DNA of 64,000 nucleotides, from the NCBI RefSeq assembly GCF_047602565.1, contig NZ_JASGGX010000001.1:4667257-4731256 (forward strand), given 5' to 3'. The notes under the pieces were generated by a model. It did no database searches. It was not told the DNA's origin and saw only the letters and a list, made by a program, of their open reading frames with translations. Shown here piece by piece: positions 3,910 to 46,492 of the stretch (its first letter is position 1; each line of letters opens with the position of its first letter). Made by a program: the position numbers and the translations under genes. This stretch comes from Propionivibrio sp. GTDB lineage: Bacteria > Pseudomonadota > Gammaproteobacteria > Burkholderiales > Rhodocyclaceae.

Positions 3910-5349
3910 TCATGGCGATGACGCCTTGTTTCTTCCCAACGTGAGCGAGATGGCCATGTCGGCGAGCTTCCCGAAGGGCGCATGCAGTAGGCCGGGGAAG
4001 TTCCAGCGGCCCTGCACGAAGACGCCCTTGGCATGGCTCATCGCACGGAAACCCTCGATGCCGTGGTAGGCTCCCATGCCGCTCGGGCCGACGCCGCCAA
4101 AGGGCAGATCGTCCTGCGCCACGTGCATCAAGGTGTTGTTGATGCCTACGTTGCCCGACGTGGTGCGCGCCAGCAGCCGGGCGCAGTCGCCGTCCTCGGC
4201 ACCGAAGTAGTAGAGCGCGAGCGGGCGGGGCCGCGCGTTCACATGGGCGATGGCCTCGTCGATGGTGCCGTAGGTGCGCACAGGCAGGATAGGGCCGAAA
4301 ATTTCCTCCTGCATGAGGGGAGCTTCGTCGCCCGCGTTGACGACGAGCGTTGGCACCAGAGTGCGCTCTCGCCCAGGCATGTGGGCGGGGCGTTCTCCCA
4401 CCTCAATCACACGCGCGCCATTGCGGCGTGCGTCATCGACGAGCCAGCGCAGCCGGTCGTAGTGGCGGTCGCTGACGATGGTTGTGTGGTCGCGGCTGGC
4501 GGGACCGTCCGGGTAGAAGCGATGTACCGTGGCGGTGTATTGGGCGATAAAGGTGTCCAGGTCGTCCTCGTGCACCAGGGCGTAGTCCGGCGCCACGCAG
4601 GTCTGGCCGGCGTTGGACAGCTTGCCGTACACCAGACCCTGCATCGTGCGGTCGTTGACATGGCCGCGCGCCACGATGGCGGGGCTCTTGCCGCCCAGTT
4701 CCAGAGTCACGGGCACCAGGTTGTCGCTGGCGGCGCGCATCACCTTGCGGCCGACCTGCGTGCTGCCCGTGAACAGCAGGTGGTCGAACGGCAGTGCGCT
4801 GAACGCGGCGCCGACCTCGGGGCCACCCAGCACTACGGCCACCTCATCTTCCGCGAAAGCCTCGGCCAGCATATGCCGCAGCGCCTCGCTGGTACGCGGG
4901 GTCAACTCCGAGGGCTTGAGCATGGCGCGGTTGCCCGCCGCCAGCGCGGTGGCCAGCGGCACCAGTGTGAGGGAGATGGGGTAGTTCCACGGCGCCATCA
5001 CGCCCACGACGCCCAGCGGCTGGTATTCGACGTAGGCGCGCGCCGCGCGGTAGAAGAAATGCACGTGGCGGCGCTCGCGCCTCATGAAGCGGCGCAAGTG
5101 GCTGGAGAGGTAGTCGATGGCCTGGACGACGCAGGCCAGTTCCATGATGTCGGTCTCGTGGCGCGAGCGGTTGCCGAAATCGGCGCTGACCGCGTCCTTC
5201 AGGGCCTCACGGTGCGCGAGCACGGCGGCGCGCAGCCGGGCGAGCCGGGCCTTGCGCAGCGGCAGGTTCGGTGGGCCGTCGTGGAGGAAGGTGCTGCGCT
5301 GCCGGCCCAGGAGGGCGGCCATGCGGGTGCTGTCTTCATCGAGCGTCAT
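3910..5349 (-). CDS. Aldehyde dehydrogenase (coniferyl aldehyde dehydrogenase-like)
   Basis: PWNYP, FTGS, LELGGKSP, GQTCVAPDY, EEIFGP motifs. Confidence 0.92.
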   Translation of the reverse strand: MTLDEDSTRMAALLGRQRSTFLHDGPPNLPLRKARLARLRAAVLAHREALKDAVSADFGNRSRHETDIMELACVVQAIDYLSSHLRRFMRRERRHVHFFYRAARAYVEYQPLGVVGVMAPWNYPISLTLVPLATALAAGNRAMLKPSELTPRTSEALRHMLAEAFAEDEVAVVLGGPEVGAAFSALPFDHLLFTGSTQVGRKVMRAASDNLVPVTLELGGKSPAIVARGHVNDRTMQGLVYGKLSNAGQTCVAPDYALVHEDDLDTFIAQYTATVHRFYPDGPASRDHTTIVSDRHYDRLRWLVDDARRNGARVIEVGERPAHMPGRERTLVPTLVVNAGDEAPLMQEEIFGPILPVRTYGTIDEAIAHVNARPRPLALYYFGAEDGDCARLLARTTSGNVGINNTLMHVAQDDLPFGGVGPSGMGAYHGIEGFRAMSHAKGVFVQGRWNFPGLLHAPFGKLADMAISLTLGRNKASSP

Positions 5350-34105: not shown

Positions 34106-34408
34106 TTCCACGTGTATCCACGGAAAAGGGGTGGAACGGGTGAATAACACGTGGATTAAAAAATAGGCACTCTGGAAAACACGTGGATGCCCGTCTCTCT
34201 TCTCCCTGCTCTTCTCTTCTTCTTTTCTTCTTTAAATAGAGAGAGATAGAGAGAAAAAGACACGGACGGCCGAAAAACCGACATGTGGAAAAAACGGGAA
34301 AACATGTGGAATATGCGCTGCGACAGGTGGAAAATTGCATGCAACCTGTGGGGCCATAGTTGTACACAATCAAGGACTTAGGCGAGGCTGACCAGGAAAT
34401 CCACGTGT
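34106..34408. repeat. Putative phage replication origin with iterons ACA(C/T/G)GTGGA
   Basis: Copies at 34106 (rev), 34146, 34178, 34281, 34301, 34323 and 34400 (rev) flank an AT-rich pyrimidine/purine tract, immediately downstream of the primase. Confidence 0.65.
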
Positions 34409-43290: not shown

Positions 43291-43622
43291 CAGAAAACCC
43301 CTCCTTCGTCGTCCGAGTCCGGCAGGAAGGACAACTCCTTTTGGCCGAGTAATTCACGCAGCTCGGGCAACTCGTAGAGCGACACCGGACGGGCATTGAA
43401 CTGCGCGGCGGCGGCCCGGGCGATCGGCTCGGCGACCGGGTTGATGGCGTAGATCGCGCCGTTGCCGAAGAAGCGTGTGTATTCGGGCACGTCGCCGCAG
43501 GATGGCACGTTGACGCGCACGAAGCTGCTGCTGCCGATGGTCTGCTCGGTGACGAGCCCGGCGATGCGCTGGTGGCCGAACAGTTCGACGATGCACCAGG
43601 ATTCGAATTTCGAGTTTTCCAT
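43290..43622 (-). CDS. Conserved phage hypothetical protein
   Basis: WCIVELFGHQRIAG...GAIYAINP; coupled to neighbours. Confidence 0.75.
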   Translation of the reverse strand: MENSKFESWCIVELFGHQRIAGLVTEQTIGSSSFVRVNVPSCGDVPEYTRFFGNGAIYAINPVAEPIARAAAAQFNARPVSLYELPELRELLGQKELSFLPDSDDEGGVF

Positions 43623-44953
43623 TACGCGGATCTCCTGTAGGTTTTGGTGAGGTTGGTTTTGACGCAGTGCCCGCGCCGGCGCAGCAGGTTGGTCAGCTCG
43701 GCGCGGTCGTGGTGGCTGTGGGAGGCCTGCCGGAACAGGCCGAAGTAGCTGTTGGCCGTGGCGAACAGGTCGTCGTCATCGACCTCGTAAACCCGGCAGA
43801 TGGCTTCGTGGAAGGTGCGCCGGCGCAGGGTGCGGTGCCATGGCTTGACGACCTGGCCGACGAAATCGATGCCGCGGGCGATCGGCTGCAGGACGGTCTT
43901 CTTCGGGTTCAGCCGGGCGTGCAGCCTGTCCTGCAGCACGGCCTCCATCTTTTCCTTCGCCGCGTTGAGCCAGTCGGGCGATTCATGGAGCAGAACGAAG
44001 TCGTCCACGTAGCGGATGAAGTGGCGGCAGTGCAGGACGTGCTTGGCGAACTGGTCGAGCACGTCGAGGTAGACGTTCGCCCCGAACTGGCTCGGCAGGT
44101 TGCCGATCGCCATGCCGATGTGCCCCGGCTGGCTGGCCAGGCGCTTGTGCGGCGGCACGCGCTCGATCAGGCGGGCGTTCCCGCGCAGCTCATAGTTCTG
44201 GCGCGGGTCGTGGAACATGATCACCTCGGCGAGCCACAACCACCACGGATCGTCGATGTGCGGGGCCAGCAGGCCCATCAGGATGCGCTTGTCGATCCGG
44301 ACGAAGAAGTTCTCCAGGTCGCATTTCAGGTAATACGCGGGACGGCTCCAGTTCTGGGTGATGCTGCGCACCTTGGCCTCCAGGCGCTCGGCGGCGTACA
44401 GCGTGCCGCGGCCCGGGATGCAGGCGCAGGAATCGGCGATGAAGCGGGCGTGAAAATAGGGCGCGAGGCGGTTGTGCAGAAGGTGATGAACGATGCGATC
44501 ACGGAAATCTGCTGCCCACACCTCGCGCGGCTTCGGCCGGGTGATGACGAAACAGATGGATTTGCCGGGAGCGTAGCTGCCCTCGGTCAGTTCCTCATGG
44601 AGTTGCCACAAGTTGCGTTCCAGATCCTGCTCGAACGCCAGCGCGCTTGCCGTGTTCCGCTTGTTCTTGCGGCAATCGATATAGGCGCGGAGCAGGAGCT
44701 CGAAGGAGTAGTTGGATGAATCTGCTGACGGCACGGACGCGGACCTCCGACGAGAGGTTGTTGTTGTTCTGATTGCCGTTGTCGAAGTTCTGGACGAACG
44801 CCGTGTGTTCGCACTTTCCACGTCGCCCCGCCGACTGTTCGGCAGGGAAACTGCACCGGACCGGCGGGAGCCGGGCTCCCCGGTATCCGCGGTGTGCATA
44901 GCCGTGCCCTCGTGAGGCAGGGGTGCGACCAGATTCATAATGCGCACGGTCAT
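43622..44953 (-). CDS. DGR reverse transcriptase (start codon uncertain; TR lies within the 5' part of the ORF)
   Basis: FRDRIVHH, KCDLENFF, IGNLPSQ (DGR-type GxxxSQ), RYVDD, LNPKKT, GIDFVG; adjacent to avd and TR. Confidence 0.95.
   Translation of the reverse strand: MTVRIMNLVAPLPHEGTAMHTADTGEPGSRRSGAVSLPNSRRGDVESANTRRSSRTSTTAIRTTTTSRRRSASVPSADSSNYSFELLLRAYIDCRKNKRNTASALAFEQDLERNLWQLHEELTEGSYAPGKSICFVITRPKPREVWAADFRDRIVHHLLHNRLAPYFHARFIADSCACIPGRGTLYAAERLEAKVRSITQNWSRPAYYLKCDLENFFVRIDKRILMGLLAPHIDDPWWLWLAEVIMFHDPRQNYELRGNARLIERVPPHKRLASQPGHIGMAIGNLPSQFGANVYLDVLDQFAKHVLHCRHFIRYVDDFVLLHESPDWLNAAKEKMEAVLQDRLHARLNPKKTVLQPIARGIDFVGQVVKPWHRTLRRRTFHEAICRVYEVDDDDLFATANSYFGLFRQASHSHHDRAELTNLLRRRGHCVKTNLTKTYRRSA
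44724..44804 (-). repeat. DGR template repeat (TR)
   Basis: 81 nt with 20 adenines, rich in AAC codons; differs from both VRs only at A positions. Confidence 0.95.
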
Positions 44954-45327
44954 GGGAGCCTTGGCCCCGATGAATCAGACGCGGTTGCTGACTTCTTCAA
45001 CCAGCCGCCGGCCTGTCTGTTGAGGATGTTCGTCATTTCGATGGCCCTGGCCCACAGCTTCCAGGACACAAAACCTTTGTCGGCACTGACGCGCATCATC
45101 AGCGACACCACCTCCAGCCCGCGGAGGACGTTGCGGATGTGCTCGCAACGTTTTTCCCCGCGGCTGGCATTGGCGTAGCCGATCTCCAGGAGCAGGTCGA
45201 CACACTCGTCATGGACCCGCCGCCCCAGGCTTTGCTTGAACGTGCGCGGCATGTTCAGGTGCACGTCGGCGGCCAGGGTGAGCAGGTCGTACCCTTTCTT
45301 GTAGATCGGCAGGTCGGTATGCAGCAT
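44950..45327 (-). CDS. avd: DGR accessory variability determinant (four-helix bundle)
   Basis: LPIYKKGYDL...PRTFKQSLG...LEVV....RV...QAGGW; position between targets and RT. Confidence 0.9.
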   Translation of the reverse strand: MLHTDLPIYKKGYDLLTLAADVHLNMPRTFKQSLGRRVHDECVDLLLEIGYANASRGEKRCEHIRNVLRGLEVVSLMMRVSADKGFVSWKLWARAIEMTNILNRQAGGWLKKSATASDSSGPRLP

Positions 45328-45329
45328 GG

Positions 45330-45361
45330 CTGAAGGACTAAAGGATCAAAGGGTCAAAGAG
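45330..45361 (-). repeat. 8-bp tandem repeat downstream of VR1
   Basis: CTCTTTGA CCCTTTGA TCCTTTAG TCCTTCAG on the minus strand. Confidence 0.7.
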
Positions 45362-45848
45362 GAATCTCGCTGACGGCACGGACGCGGACCTCCGACGAGA
45401 GGTGGCTGTAGTCCTGACTGCCGCTGACGAAGCTCTGGACGAACGCCGCCTTGCCGCTGAGCGTCTTAGTGAGCAGCCAGTACCAGGGAGACGTCTCGAA
45501 GCGATCGCGCAGGTTGTCGAACAGCGTGAGGCCCTGGTGGCGGGTCGGCAGGTGGCTGTCCATATCCGGCTTGACGTTCTCGGCGTGCTTGACGGCGTCC
45601 TCGTAATTCATTGCCACCTGCGGATCGTCGTCCCACAGGATCAGGTGCACCAGGCGGTCGCCGGTCTTCGAGAGCGAGACGCCGGCGTAGGTGGCGGCGA
45701 GGCCGGGCCACTTGTCGCCGACGGCCGGGACGGCCCGGGGGGCGGACGAGGCCTTGGCGGCGGAGGCAATGGCCAGCGCGGCGAACAGGCCGACCGGCGG
45801 TTGCGCGTGGGCCAGGGTGATGTTGACGTTTTCGATGTGAAGTTTCAT
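45354..45848 (-). CDS. DGR target protein 1 (DUF1566/C-type lectin-like fold, C-terminal VR)
   Basis: LPTR, WYWL, AFVQSF..G.Q......VRVRAV C-terminus; contains VR1. Confidence 0.9.
   Translation of the reverse strand: MKLHIENVNITLAHAQPPVGLFAALAIASAAKASSAPRAVPAVGDKWPGLAATYAGVSLSKTGDRLVHLILWDDDPQVAMNYEDAVKHAENVKPDMDSHLPTRHQGLTLFDNLRDRFETSPWYWLLTKTLSGKAAFVQSFVSGSQDYSHLSSEVRVRAVSEIPL
45369..45449 (-). repeat. DGR variable repeat VR1
   Basis: 72/81 identical to TR; all 9 mismatches at TR adenines. Confidence 0.95.
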
Positions 45849-45863
45849 GTTGGGGGATTCCTG

Positions 45864-45887
45864 ATGAAGGATTAAAGGACTGAAGAA
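45864..45887 (-). repeat. 8-bp tandem repeat downstream of VR2
   Basis: TTCTTCAG TCCTTTAA TCCTTCAT on the minus strand. Confidence 0.7.
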
Positions 45888-46492
45888 CCGAGTTGAATCA
45901 GCCTGACGGCACGGACGCGGACCTCCGACGAGAGGCCGTCGTCGCACTGAAGGCCGTTGTCGAAGTACTGGACGAACGCCGTCATGCCGCCGGGGAAAAG
46001 AGTCGAAGAGCCGTACCACGCGGCGTCGAACGCCTCCGAACCGCCCGCCTTGAAGGCCTTCAGCGTCGTCTGCGCCGGGTTGTCCTCGGTGTACAGCCAG
46101 CCGGGCGGCACGCTGTTGGGGTTCTCGCCGTCGCGCCATGAGCAGCAATTGGGATACGCGGTCGGCTTAAAGTGGCGGTAGCCCAGTTCGAGCACATCGC
46201 GGCTGGGGACGAGCCAGTCGCGGTAGCCGTTGATATCCAGCTCGGCGACGCGCTTGGCGGCTTCGCTGCCGGAGGCGATCAGGGCCGTGGTGTTGGCGGC
46301 GCAGTCGTGGGGGCTGTACTCGCCCTGAGCGGTCTTGCCGGTGAACAGGAGTCTGGCGATGATCTGTCCGGCCGCTTTCGGCGCCCAAACGAAGCCTTTG
46401 TGGGTGCCATTGATGTTGATGACGCCGCCGAAATAGCCGCCGTCGATGAAGGTGCCGATTCGCGGGGTTGCTGAAGGGGTGAATTGGTGCAT
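45872..46492 (-). CDS. DGR target protein 2 (DUF1566/C-type lectin-like fold, C-terminal VR)
   Basis: GGYFGG, INGYRDWLVPSRDVL, WYGSST, AFVQYFDNG.Q......VRVRAV; contains VR2. Confidence 0.9.
   Translation of the reverse strand: MHQFTPSATPRIGTFIDGGYFGGVININGTHKGFVWAPKAAGQIIARLLFTGKTAQGEYSPHDCAANTTALIASGSEAAKRVAELDINGYRDWLVPSRDVLELGYRHFKPTAYPNCCSWRDGENPNSVPPGWLYTEDNPAQTTLKAFKAGGSEAFDAAWYGSSTLFPGGMTAFVQYFDNGLQCDDGLSSEVRVRAVRLIQLGSSVL
45903..45982 (-). repeat. DGR variable repeat VR2
   Basis: 71/80 identical to TR; all 9 mismatches at TR adenines. Confidence 0.95.

Follow-up and report, generated by a model that had tools for sequence, protein, structure and literature searches.

How a diversity-generating retroelement (DGR) selects the DNA that receives its mutagenised cDNA is a question raised in a concrete form by a prophage DGR on the minus strand of a 64,000-nt stretch of a Propionivibrio sp. 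genome (the window; contig NZ_JASGGX010000001.1, positions 4,667,257 to 4,731,256), where target gene 2, target gene 1, the accessory gene avd and a reverse transcriptase (RT) open reading frame (ORF) containing the template repeat (TR) follow one another. In such elements the RT–Avd complex makes cDNA on TR RNA, the cDNA then replaces a variable repeat (VR) in a target, and integration favours single-stranded target DNA (PMC12875486). The target-side elements defined so far, the initiation of mutagenic homing (IMH) sequence and a GC-rich hairpin, come from one phage, BPP-1, in which both mark the acceptor; published hairpins stand at a distance of 4–34 bp past the VR (PMC3240598). Inverted repeats were reported in only 34% of DGRs, so that the hairpin is missing in 66%, about two-thirds of them, and for a DGR with identical IMH and IMH*, 'recognition would have to extend downstream' (PMC5758913). 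A 2026 reconstitution paper states that the integration step 'remains unknown' and leaves target choice unexplained (PMC12875486).

The two targets of the window have no hairpin and appear, from comparison with a close relative, to have undergone recent retrohoming. Directly behind each VR we found a sharply defined, VR-exclusive and clade-conserved element, an array of tandem 8-bp direct repeats, which makes the question directly testable with 24–32 bp. We put at roughly 60% the probability that in this DGR lineage the arrays mark the acceptor site in cis, as the half of the IMH (in its broad sense) that discriminates target from template, and regard them for now as a strong candidate. Full-text searches and the main papers on DGR target sites, surveys and reconstitution yielded no description of direct-repeat arrays behind VRs, subscription-only papers being outside the search, and provisionally consider the array a previously undescribed variant of known DGR target-site architecture.

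Tandem 8-bp repeats follow both variable repeats of the window

The arrays lie where the sequence-only reading of the window had placed them and read on the minus strand exactly as given there (Table 1); Tandem Repeats Finder also detects a period of 8 at 45340–45359. They stand behind a GC-rich, adenine-free end, CCTCTCGTCGGAGGTCCGCGTCCGTGCCGTCAG, which is identical in TR, VR1 and VR2 and beyond which all three diverge, as IMH does from IMH*. The GATTC just past the homology end in TR, VR1 and VR2, with the preceding bases AGCA-, AGCGA- and AGGCT-, is likewise present as described. One statement needed correction, namely that the repeat consensus is absent after the TR: a single octamer, TCCTTCGA, lies 17 nt past the TR homology end, where it forms the codons S-F-E of the conserved RT N-terminus (..SFELLLRAY.. 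in the window, ..FSFEEL.. at the equivalent place in most relatives).

As a single octamer, TCCTTYRR is not enriched across the window (9 found, 10 expected). Two adjacent full units, defined as the pattern [CT][ACT][AC]TT[CT]A[AGT] twice in tandem, occur only three times in the whole genome (4.86 Mb, 66% GC, both strands), each time in a VR1 or VR2 flank, against about 0.7 by our estimate from base composition. The tandem form, unlike the single octamer, is far beyond chance.

That no GC hairpin follows either VR also holds, because DNA folds of 96 nt around the VR ends were no better than those of shuffled sequences on either strand (z +0.2 to +0.5). A scan for perfect GC-rich stems of at least 6 bp within 100 nt of the VR flank gave no window hairpin among the examples listed, and neither a BPP-1-type inverted repeat (7–10 bp stem, 4-nt GRNA loop, 4–34 bp past the VR) nor an intrinsic terminator (GC hairpin and T-run) was found after either window VR.

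The arrays are conserved across related DGRs and confined to variable repeats

Using the RT as query we collected 160 related loci, 80 from species-representative genomes and 80 from IMG/VR, with RTs 59–97% identical. Exact 16-mers placed the TR and VR ends in 155 of 161 loci (window included) and yielded 312 VR ends with 263 distinct 3' flanks; 131 distinct TR flanks served for comparison. Self-identity in the VR flanks was 0.50 at lag 8 and 0.44 at lag 16, versus 0.22 and 0.20 in the TR flanks. At least two in-phase units were present in 246 of the 263 VR flanks, the remaining 17 being degenerate arrays, and no tandem array stood in any of the 131 TR flanks; the 14 TR flanks with at least two in-phase TTYR motifs were discarded as non-adjacent chance matches in RT coding sequence.

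The unit logo, Y-M-(A/C)-T-T-Y-A-D (YMMTTYAD), has nearly invariant T4, T5 and A7 and excludes G at positions 1–6, the typical array comprises three units (three to four), and information content drops to about zero directly past unit 3. TR and VR are identical in the clade up to ..GCCGTC(C/A)G.. and then fully divergent, and past this point the array is the sole conserved VR-specific feature. Its register is fixed: of 233 flanks, 143 have the first TT exactly 8 nt past ..CGCAG, and 167 have it at 0 mod 8. The window's subclade has the subtype TCCTTYAR, and its closest relatives (L081, L001, L082 and L087) carry four to six units of the TCCTT/CCCTT subtype. In L082 (3326–3390) the avd-proximal VR array has six units, including a repeated TCCTTTAG, compared with four in the window.

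When 1.27 Mb of loci were scanned on both strands, clusters of three phased TTYA fell no more than 40 nt 3' of a VR end in 111 of 112 cases, and clusters of two full units in 191 of 192. Non-target genes are thus not followed by the motif as often as targets are, which was one of the conditions that the sequence-only reading had named as refuting its target-marking proposal; as the arrays are nearly confined to VR 3' ends, that proposal is not refuted, and their placement matches what a target-marking element predicts. Being tandem (at least two to three units of 7–8 bp), only a few nt from the VR/TR homology end, missing from the TR, conserved in the clade and found nowhere else in the genome, they can be grouped provisionally as a class, 'post-VR short direct-repeat array'. 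The type-A unit tracks the RT clade in metagenome-assembled genomes (MAGs) assigned to Burkholderiales, Pseudomonas, Geobacteraceae, Verrucomicrobiaceae, Planctomycetota and Enterobacteriaceae, with the proviso that MAG prophage contigs can be mis-binned. The arrays of a locus are correlated in unit subtype, C or A before TT (r 0.53, against a permutation maximum of 0.29), a value inflated by the relatedness of the loci, and an A-type array was never paired with a C-type one in the same locus (115 loci).

These data bear on the possibility that the arrays have no function of their own and were either inherited with the 3' end of a target cassette that became duplicated, or left behind as scars or slippage products when cDNA integrated imprecisely again and again. 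The occurrence of TCCTTTARTCCTTCA in both window arrays and the variation from four to six units among close relatives (as in L082) would fit such an origin, which is nevertheless very improbable: the window targets share nothing beyond the VR, the pattern persists down to 59% RT identity although the sequence just past the array is unconserved, substitutions between close relatives keep the consensus, and DGR clades described below differ in their units and share the architecture. Moreover, the arrays are unlike the TR flank and were thus not copied from the template. Two narrower versions were rejected outright. A remnant of recent target duplication is at odds with targets 1 and 2 being alike only in their last 43, VR-encoded, residues, and slipped-strand structure or slippage homogenisation with a unit identity of 0.65 within arrays against 0.64 between loci.

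The hairpin-less targets appear to be active acceptors

The near-identical IMG/VR phage L081 (2700–4000, aligned with window 44700–46000; avd 98.8% identical) has a TR that differs from that of the window by one G-to-T change (TCGTCTGAGG against TCGTCGGAGG). In the window and in L081 alike, both VRs carry the G/T base of their own TR, and at TR-adenine sites the two phages have different VR sequences. Since the TR base is mirrored in both VRs, TR information moved into both targets after the window and L081 split, and on this comparison the hairpin-less targets of the window are active acceptors with recent retrohoming into both. The five array substitutions that separate the two phages all fall at degenerate unit positions, for which we estimate a random chance of about 1 in 10; that substitutions spare the consensus is suggestive only.

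Array and hairpin are separate modules

Among the 263 VR flanks of the clade, 60 (23%) carry a hairpin, which starts at a median of 32 nt past the VR end, directly behind the array, and most commonly has the GNA-type loops C-GCA-G and C-GTA-G. A T-run follows in only seven of these 60, and with no hairpin in the window a terminator was rejected as an explanation of the arrays. Hairpins about 30 nt past the VR were seen in L010, L015, L036, L049, L059, L060, L063, L066–L069, L074, L075, L090 and L152; many of them have a loop of three bases closed by C-G and others a loop of four, as in Pseudomonas-type loci (G-CTTG-C), and most lack a T-run.

Because the hairpin stands directly behind the array in some relatives, the two are separate modules: the array, essentially universal in the clade, lies between the shared VR/TR end and an optional hairpin, and the window has the array only. 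The proposal of an alternative target-recognition element is hence sustained in that the arrays are VR-specific, TR-free and clade-conserved, but not in the sense of a simple hairpin substitute, as 23% of the flanks carry both. Outside the clade, the phage clades of Firmicutes and Bacteroides as a rule combine an array with a hairpin.

Like the BPP-1 site (Guo et al. 2011, PMC3240598; Wu et al. 2018, PMC5758913), the array lies directly 3' of the VR past the end of identity, and like the BPP-1 target signal it is found with the VR and not with the TR, behind a GC-rich invariant VR end; the GNA-loop GC hairpins behind the array in 23% of the relatives fall within the published 4–34 bp. Unlike the BPP-1 site it consists of direct, not inverted, repeats, three to four degenerate 8-bp units in fixed register without stable structure. 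The window, which has no hairpin, encodes an RT about 30% identical to BPP-1 Brt. The 55 distinct flanks of the BPP-1 clade share a conserved CACCTGnnnCTTGAnTrAG that leads straight into a GNRA-loop hairpin.

Similar architectures with other units occur in further DGR clades

The closest cultured relatives, Burkholderia phage Magia (MT701587) and Pseudomonas phage Haboob (OR683404), with RTs 63–65% identical, have the gene order of the window (small lectin-fold targets, avd, TR, RT) and arrays behind both VRs, e.g. CGCTTTAA CCCTTCAT CCATTCAC and TCCCTTCAG TCTTTTGA TCATTTGA. Their records annotate an 'IMH-like region' only, and their units are mostly A/C-mixed, versus the uniform TCCTT type of the window.

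In Firmicutes phage DGRs (Faecalibacterium phage FP_Lagaffe, Bacillus phage BalMu-1), four to five tandem NAATCTGR units precede a GC hairpin, as in CCCGG AAATCSGG TAATCTGG CAATCTGA AAATCTGG from the FP_Lagaffe clade and TAATCTGG AATCTGAG AAACTGTG AATCTGAC from the BalMu-1 clade. All 23 clusters of this pattern in 196 kb are at the equivalent position, 22 of them directly behind a recognisable VR end, and lag-8 self-identity is 0.55. Arrays of this type between VR and hairpin were seen in L264 (5097–5150), L274–L296, L167 and L175–L178. In L294 (about 2200–2290) a type-B array with hairpin is preceded by sequence unlike the usual VR end of its clade, and the target here may be another one or one that has decayed. 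The Bacteroides phage F4 clade (L168, about 4246–4295; L169–L173) has five 7-bp units, xxTTWAx, before a GAAA-loop hairpin, with a lag-7 self-identity of 0.58 (n=4). Like those of the window, the Firmicutes and F4 arrays are tandem 7–8 bp units a few nt past the VR and occur nowhere else in their loci; they differ in unit sequence and in the hairpin always found behind them, and the RTs are about 34% identical to that of the window. Single phages of other clades (Bise, Vibrio, Aeromonas, Helicobacter, BS-TP1) have hairpins and no clear array.

The arrays do not depend on reading frame or on the gene that follows

In the window, the TGA stop of target 1 (45356–45354) lies inside unit 1 of the VR1 array, whose unit 4 is followed by CC and the avd ATG, and the TAA stop of target 2 (45874–45872) lies inside unit 2 of the VR2 array, from which 15 nt lead to the target 1 ATG. 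Across 105 flanks with unambiguous frame, the stop codon falls before the array in nine, in unit 1 in 61, in unit 2 in 29, in unit 3 in two and after the array in four. Because the stop position varies, we rejected a coding explanation; L081, too, loses the unit-2 TAA yet keeps the array. There (about 2808–2870), unit 2 of the VR2 array is TCCTTCAA instead of TCCTTTAA, so that the stop of target 2 is lost, and from our reading of the sequence the gene runs on for nine codons to a TGA overlapping the ATG of the next gene, with the array pattern kept.

The arrays might instead act on expression of the target operon, through stops in three frames (8 mod 3 = 2), termination–reinitiation coupling, or a pause or processing site in the transcript. 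The stop codon is usually inside the array; TGA, TGA and TAG close all three frames past VR1 of the window; 43% of VR flanks, against 7% of shuffles, have all frames closed within 32 nt; and in the window avd begins 2 nt past the last unit without a Shine–Dalgarno sequence. We nonetheless hold a role in expression to be improbable, given that 57% of flanks leave some frame open and 27% close only one, that a C at position 6 deprives 44% of units of a stop, and that Firmicutes units rarely hold stops. Arrays also stand behind every VR whatever comes next (avd, a second target with its own Shine–Dalgarno sequence, or a hairpin; remote VRs included) and behind no other gene. A purely three-frame stop device, enriched as it is, is far from universal, and we rejected it in favour of a by-product.

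The avd-proximal flanks of most of L001–L160, as well as window 45325–45330, have no avd Shine–Dalgarno sequence, and avd begins 2–10 nt past the last unit (in many relatives with ..TTCAGCATGG..). A clear GGAG stands before second targets, past the array upstream of them. Translation of avd may depend on coupling to the target gene.

An acceptor-site marker that may be read unit by unit

As an acceptor-site marker, the array would tell the recipient of mutagenised cDNA, the VR, from the TR, which is donor only. Each unit would be read sequence-specifically, most likely by the RT–Avd complex and possibly on the unwound sense strand where the cDNA anneals, and this reading would position, dock or license the cDNA-bearing complex, or integration, at the 3' VR boundary, with or without a hairpin. 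On this reading the arrays would be needed for homing and would bind a protein. RT–Avd is the likeliest reader because avd and RT are the only genes common to all loci; no other ORF is conserved around the arrays, and a dedicated neighbouring DNA-binding gene was rejected as reader on that ground. Tracking of the RT clade and within-locus covariation point to this DGR-encoded reader over a host factor, short of proof. Units resemble others of their own array no more closely than those of other loci, which favours reading of each unit over slipped pairing, and we also count for a marker that independent clades share the architecture with other units.

Several observations weigh against a marker. 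Arrays are not universal, since the sole clade to have been studied in depth, that of BPP-1, lacks them and shows no periodicity (lag-8 self-identity 0.21 in its 55 flanks), and the related clade offers no natural negative control, as no array-less VR was found in it, the 17 apparent cases keeping degenerate arrays. The units are degenerate: between the window and L081, 5 of 56 array positions have changed, compared with 1.2% of avd, so that only the pattern is constrained. At a spacing of 8 bp, neighbouring sites do not share a face of the B-DNA helix, an uncommon arrangement for a protein that simply binds the duplex, and within-locus covariation and clade-specific unit types could stem from shared ancestry of related loci.

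Contiguous short direct repeats that small DNA-binding proteins read are familiar from the heptad arrays of omega repressor, and repeats next to a GC cluster that direct single-strand binding and opening from the DnaA-trio and 13-mer elements of bacterial replication origins. The window arrays resemble these in being contiguous repeats shorter than a helical turn with few invariant positions, and the origin elements also adjoin a GC-rich block; they differ in period and sequence, and no such protein is encoded near the DGRs studied here, so that the likeness is an analogy only.

A purely physical aid to retrohoming is also worth weighing, in which the arrays would be a low-stability, easily opened stretch beside the GC-rich VR end that keeps the sense strand accessible to the cDNA. 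The window arrays have 44% GC against 66% for the genome, VR flanks in the clade are 67% A+T in GC-rich hosts, and the arrays occupy the position of the BPP-1 hairpin; in the current model the cDNA anneals to a transiently single-stranded target whose open state a stem-loop is proposed to prolong (PMC12875486). A+T richness alone, however, requires neither an 8-bp period nor invariant T4, T5 and A7, and it would not by itself keep G off one strand or fix the register; the lack of homogenisation within arrays disfavours slipped-strand pairing, and the Firmicutes unit NAATCTGR is only moderately A+T-rich. We consider opening by itself unlikely, if slightly less so than a role in expression.

Pairing of the arrays with a guide-like segment of DGR RNA (the avd 3' end, the TR or the RT 5' end), which would bring RNA and cDNA to the target, has no more than plausibility in its favour, the RNA spacer past the TR being functionally important in BPP-1 (PMC6182149, PMC12875486). 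Predicted duplex energies with the segment were the same for the own locus as for other loci (−11.55 versus −11.60 and −11.47 versus −11.59 kcal/mol for the two strands, mean z about 0), and locus-specific guide-RNA pairing with the 5' RNA of avd–TR–RT was rejected. This energy comparison could miss a partner conserved across the whole clade. The mechanism is disfavoured by it and is the least probable of those considered here.

Returning to the acceptor-site marker, its extension to DGRs in general, with direct-repeat arrays as a class of target-site determinant read unit-wise by RT–Avd on the unwound sense strand and differing in units from clade to clade, is tentative, and we rate its chances somewhat below even. 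Were it true, it would explain how VR and TR are discriminated in the roughly two-thirds of DGRs without a hairpin. If the arrays are an acceptor label in this lineage, DGR targets could be better predicted, with remote VRs recognisable by their arrays, and the units could provide orthogonal 'address labels' for engineered mutagenesis, making several DGR diversifiers in one cell possible.

The DGR locus of the window

The DGR itself is an ordinary member of the known family. Its RT reads, on the minus strand, the DGR-type motif 4 IGNLPSQ and the catalytic motif YVDD, matches Pfam RVT_1 (E 1.9e-11) and retrieved hundreds of DGR RT relatives, and adenine-specific TR/VR pairs at target 3' ends, an adjacent avd and, by comparison, TR-to-VR transfer complete the picture. 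In the last 85 nt, 10 of 12 mismatches between VR1 and TR and 11 of 14 between VR2 and TR are at TR adenines, the others being at the ragged 5' edge, and the VRs end 8–29 nt upstream of the target stop codons. The avd product matches bAvd (PF22296) at E 2.9e-8 and 34.6 bits, below the gathering score of 40 and hence sub-threshold, and a homologue is found at the equivalent position in 160 of 161 loci.

Table 1. Features of the DGR locus, in coordinates of the window.
Feature	Position	Strand	Description
Array after VR1	45330..45361	-	Four tandem 8-bp units, CTCTTTGA CCCTTTGA TCCTTTAG TCCTTCAG
Array after VR2	45864..45887	-	Three tandem 8-bp units, TTCTTCAG TCCTTTAA TCCTTCAT
VR1	45362..45457	-	Exact TR identity stops at 45369; GAGATTC (45368–45362) joins VR1 to array
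VR2	45888..45990	-	TR identity stops at 45903; GCTGATTCAACTCGG (45902–45888) joins VR2 to array
TR	44717..44812	-	Followed by CAGATTCATCCAACTAC and RT coding sequence; array absent
Unit-like octamer TCCTTCGA	44700..44707	-	Lone copy, codons S-F-E of conserved RT N-terminus
Target gene 2	45872..46492	-	206 aa; weak Lcl_C/DUF1566 match; VR2 at 3' end
Target gene 1	45354..45848	-	164 aa; VR1 at 3' end
avd	44950..45327	-	125 aa; bAvd-like four-helix-bundle accessory protein
RT ORF	43622..44953	-	ATGA overlap with avd stop; TR inside frame

The RT ORF reads open from the ATG in ATGA (44953–44950), in frame across the whole TR, and the 24 nt from the TR end to the conserved RT N-terminus ..YSFELLLRAY.. 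(44731–44708) contain no in-frame ATG, GTG or TTG. Targets 1 and 2 (45354–46492), of which only target 2 shows a weak Lcl_C/DUF1566 match, sit in the early/regulatory part of the prophage, away from the tail genes. Elsewhere in the window, and unrelated to the DGR, Tandem Repeats Finder reports a pyrimidine-rich simple repeat at 34196–34254 (TCTTCTTT and similar), followed by ATAGAGAGAG.

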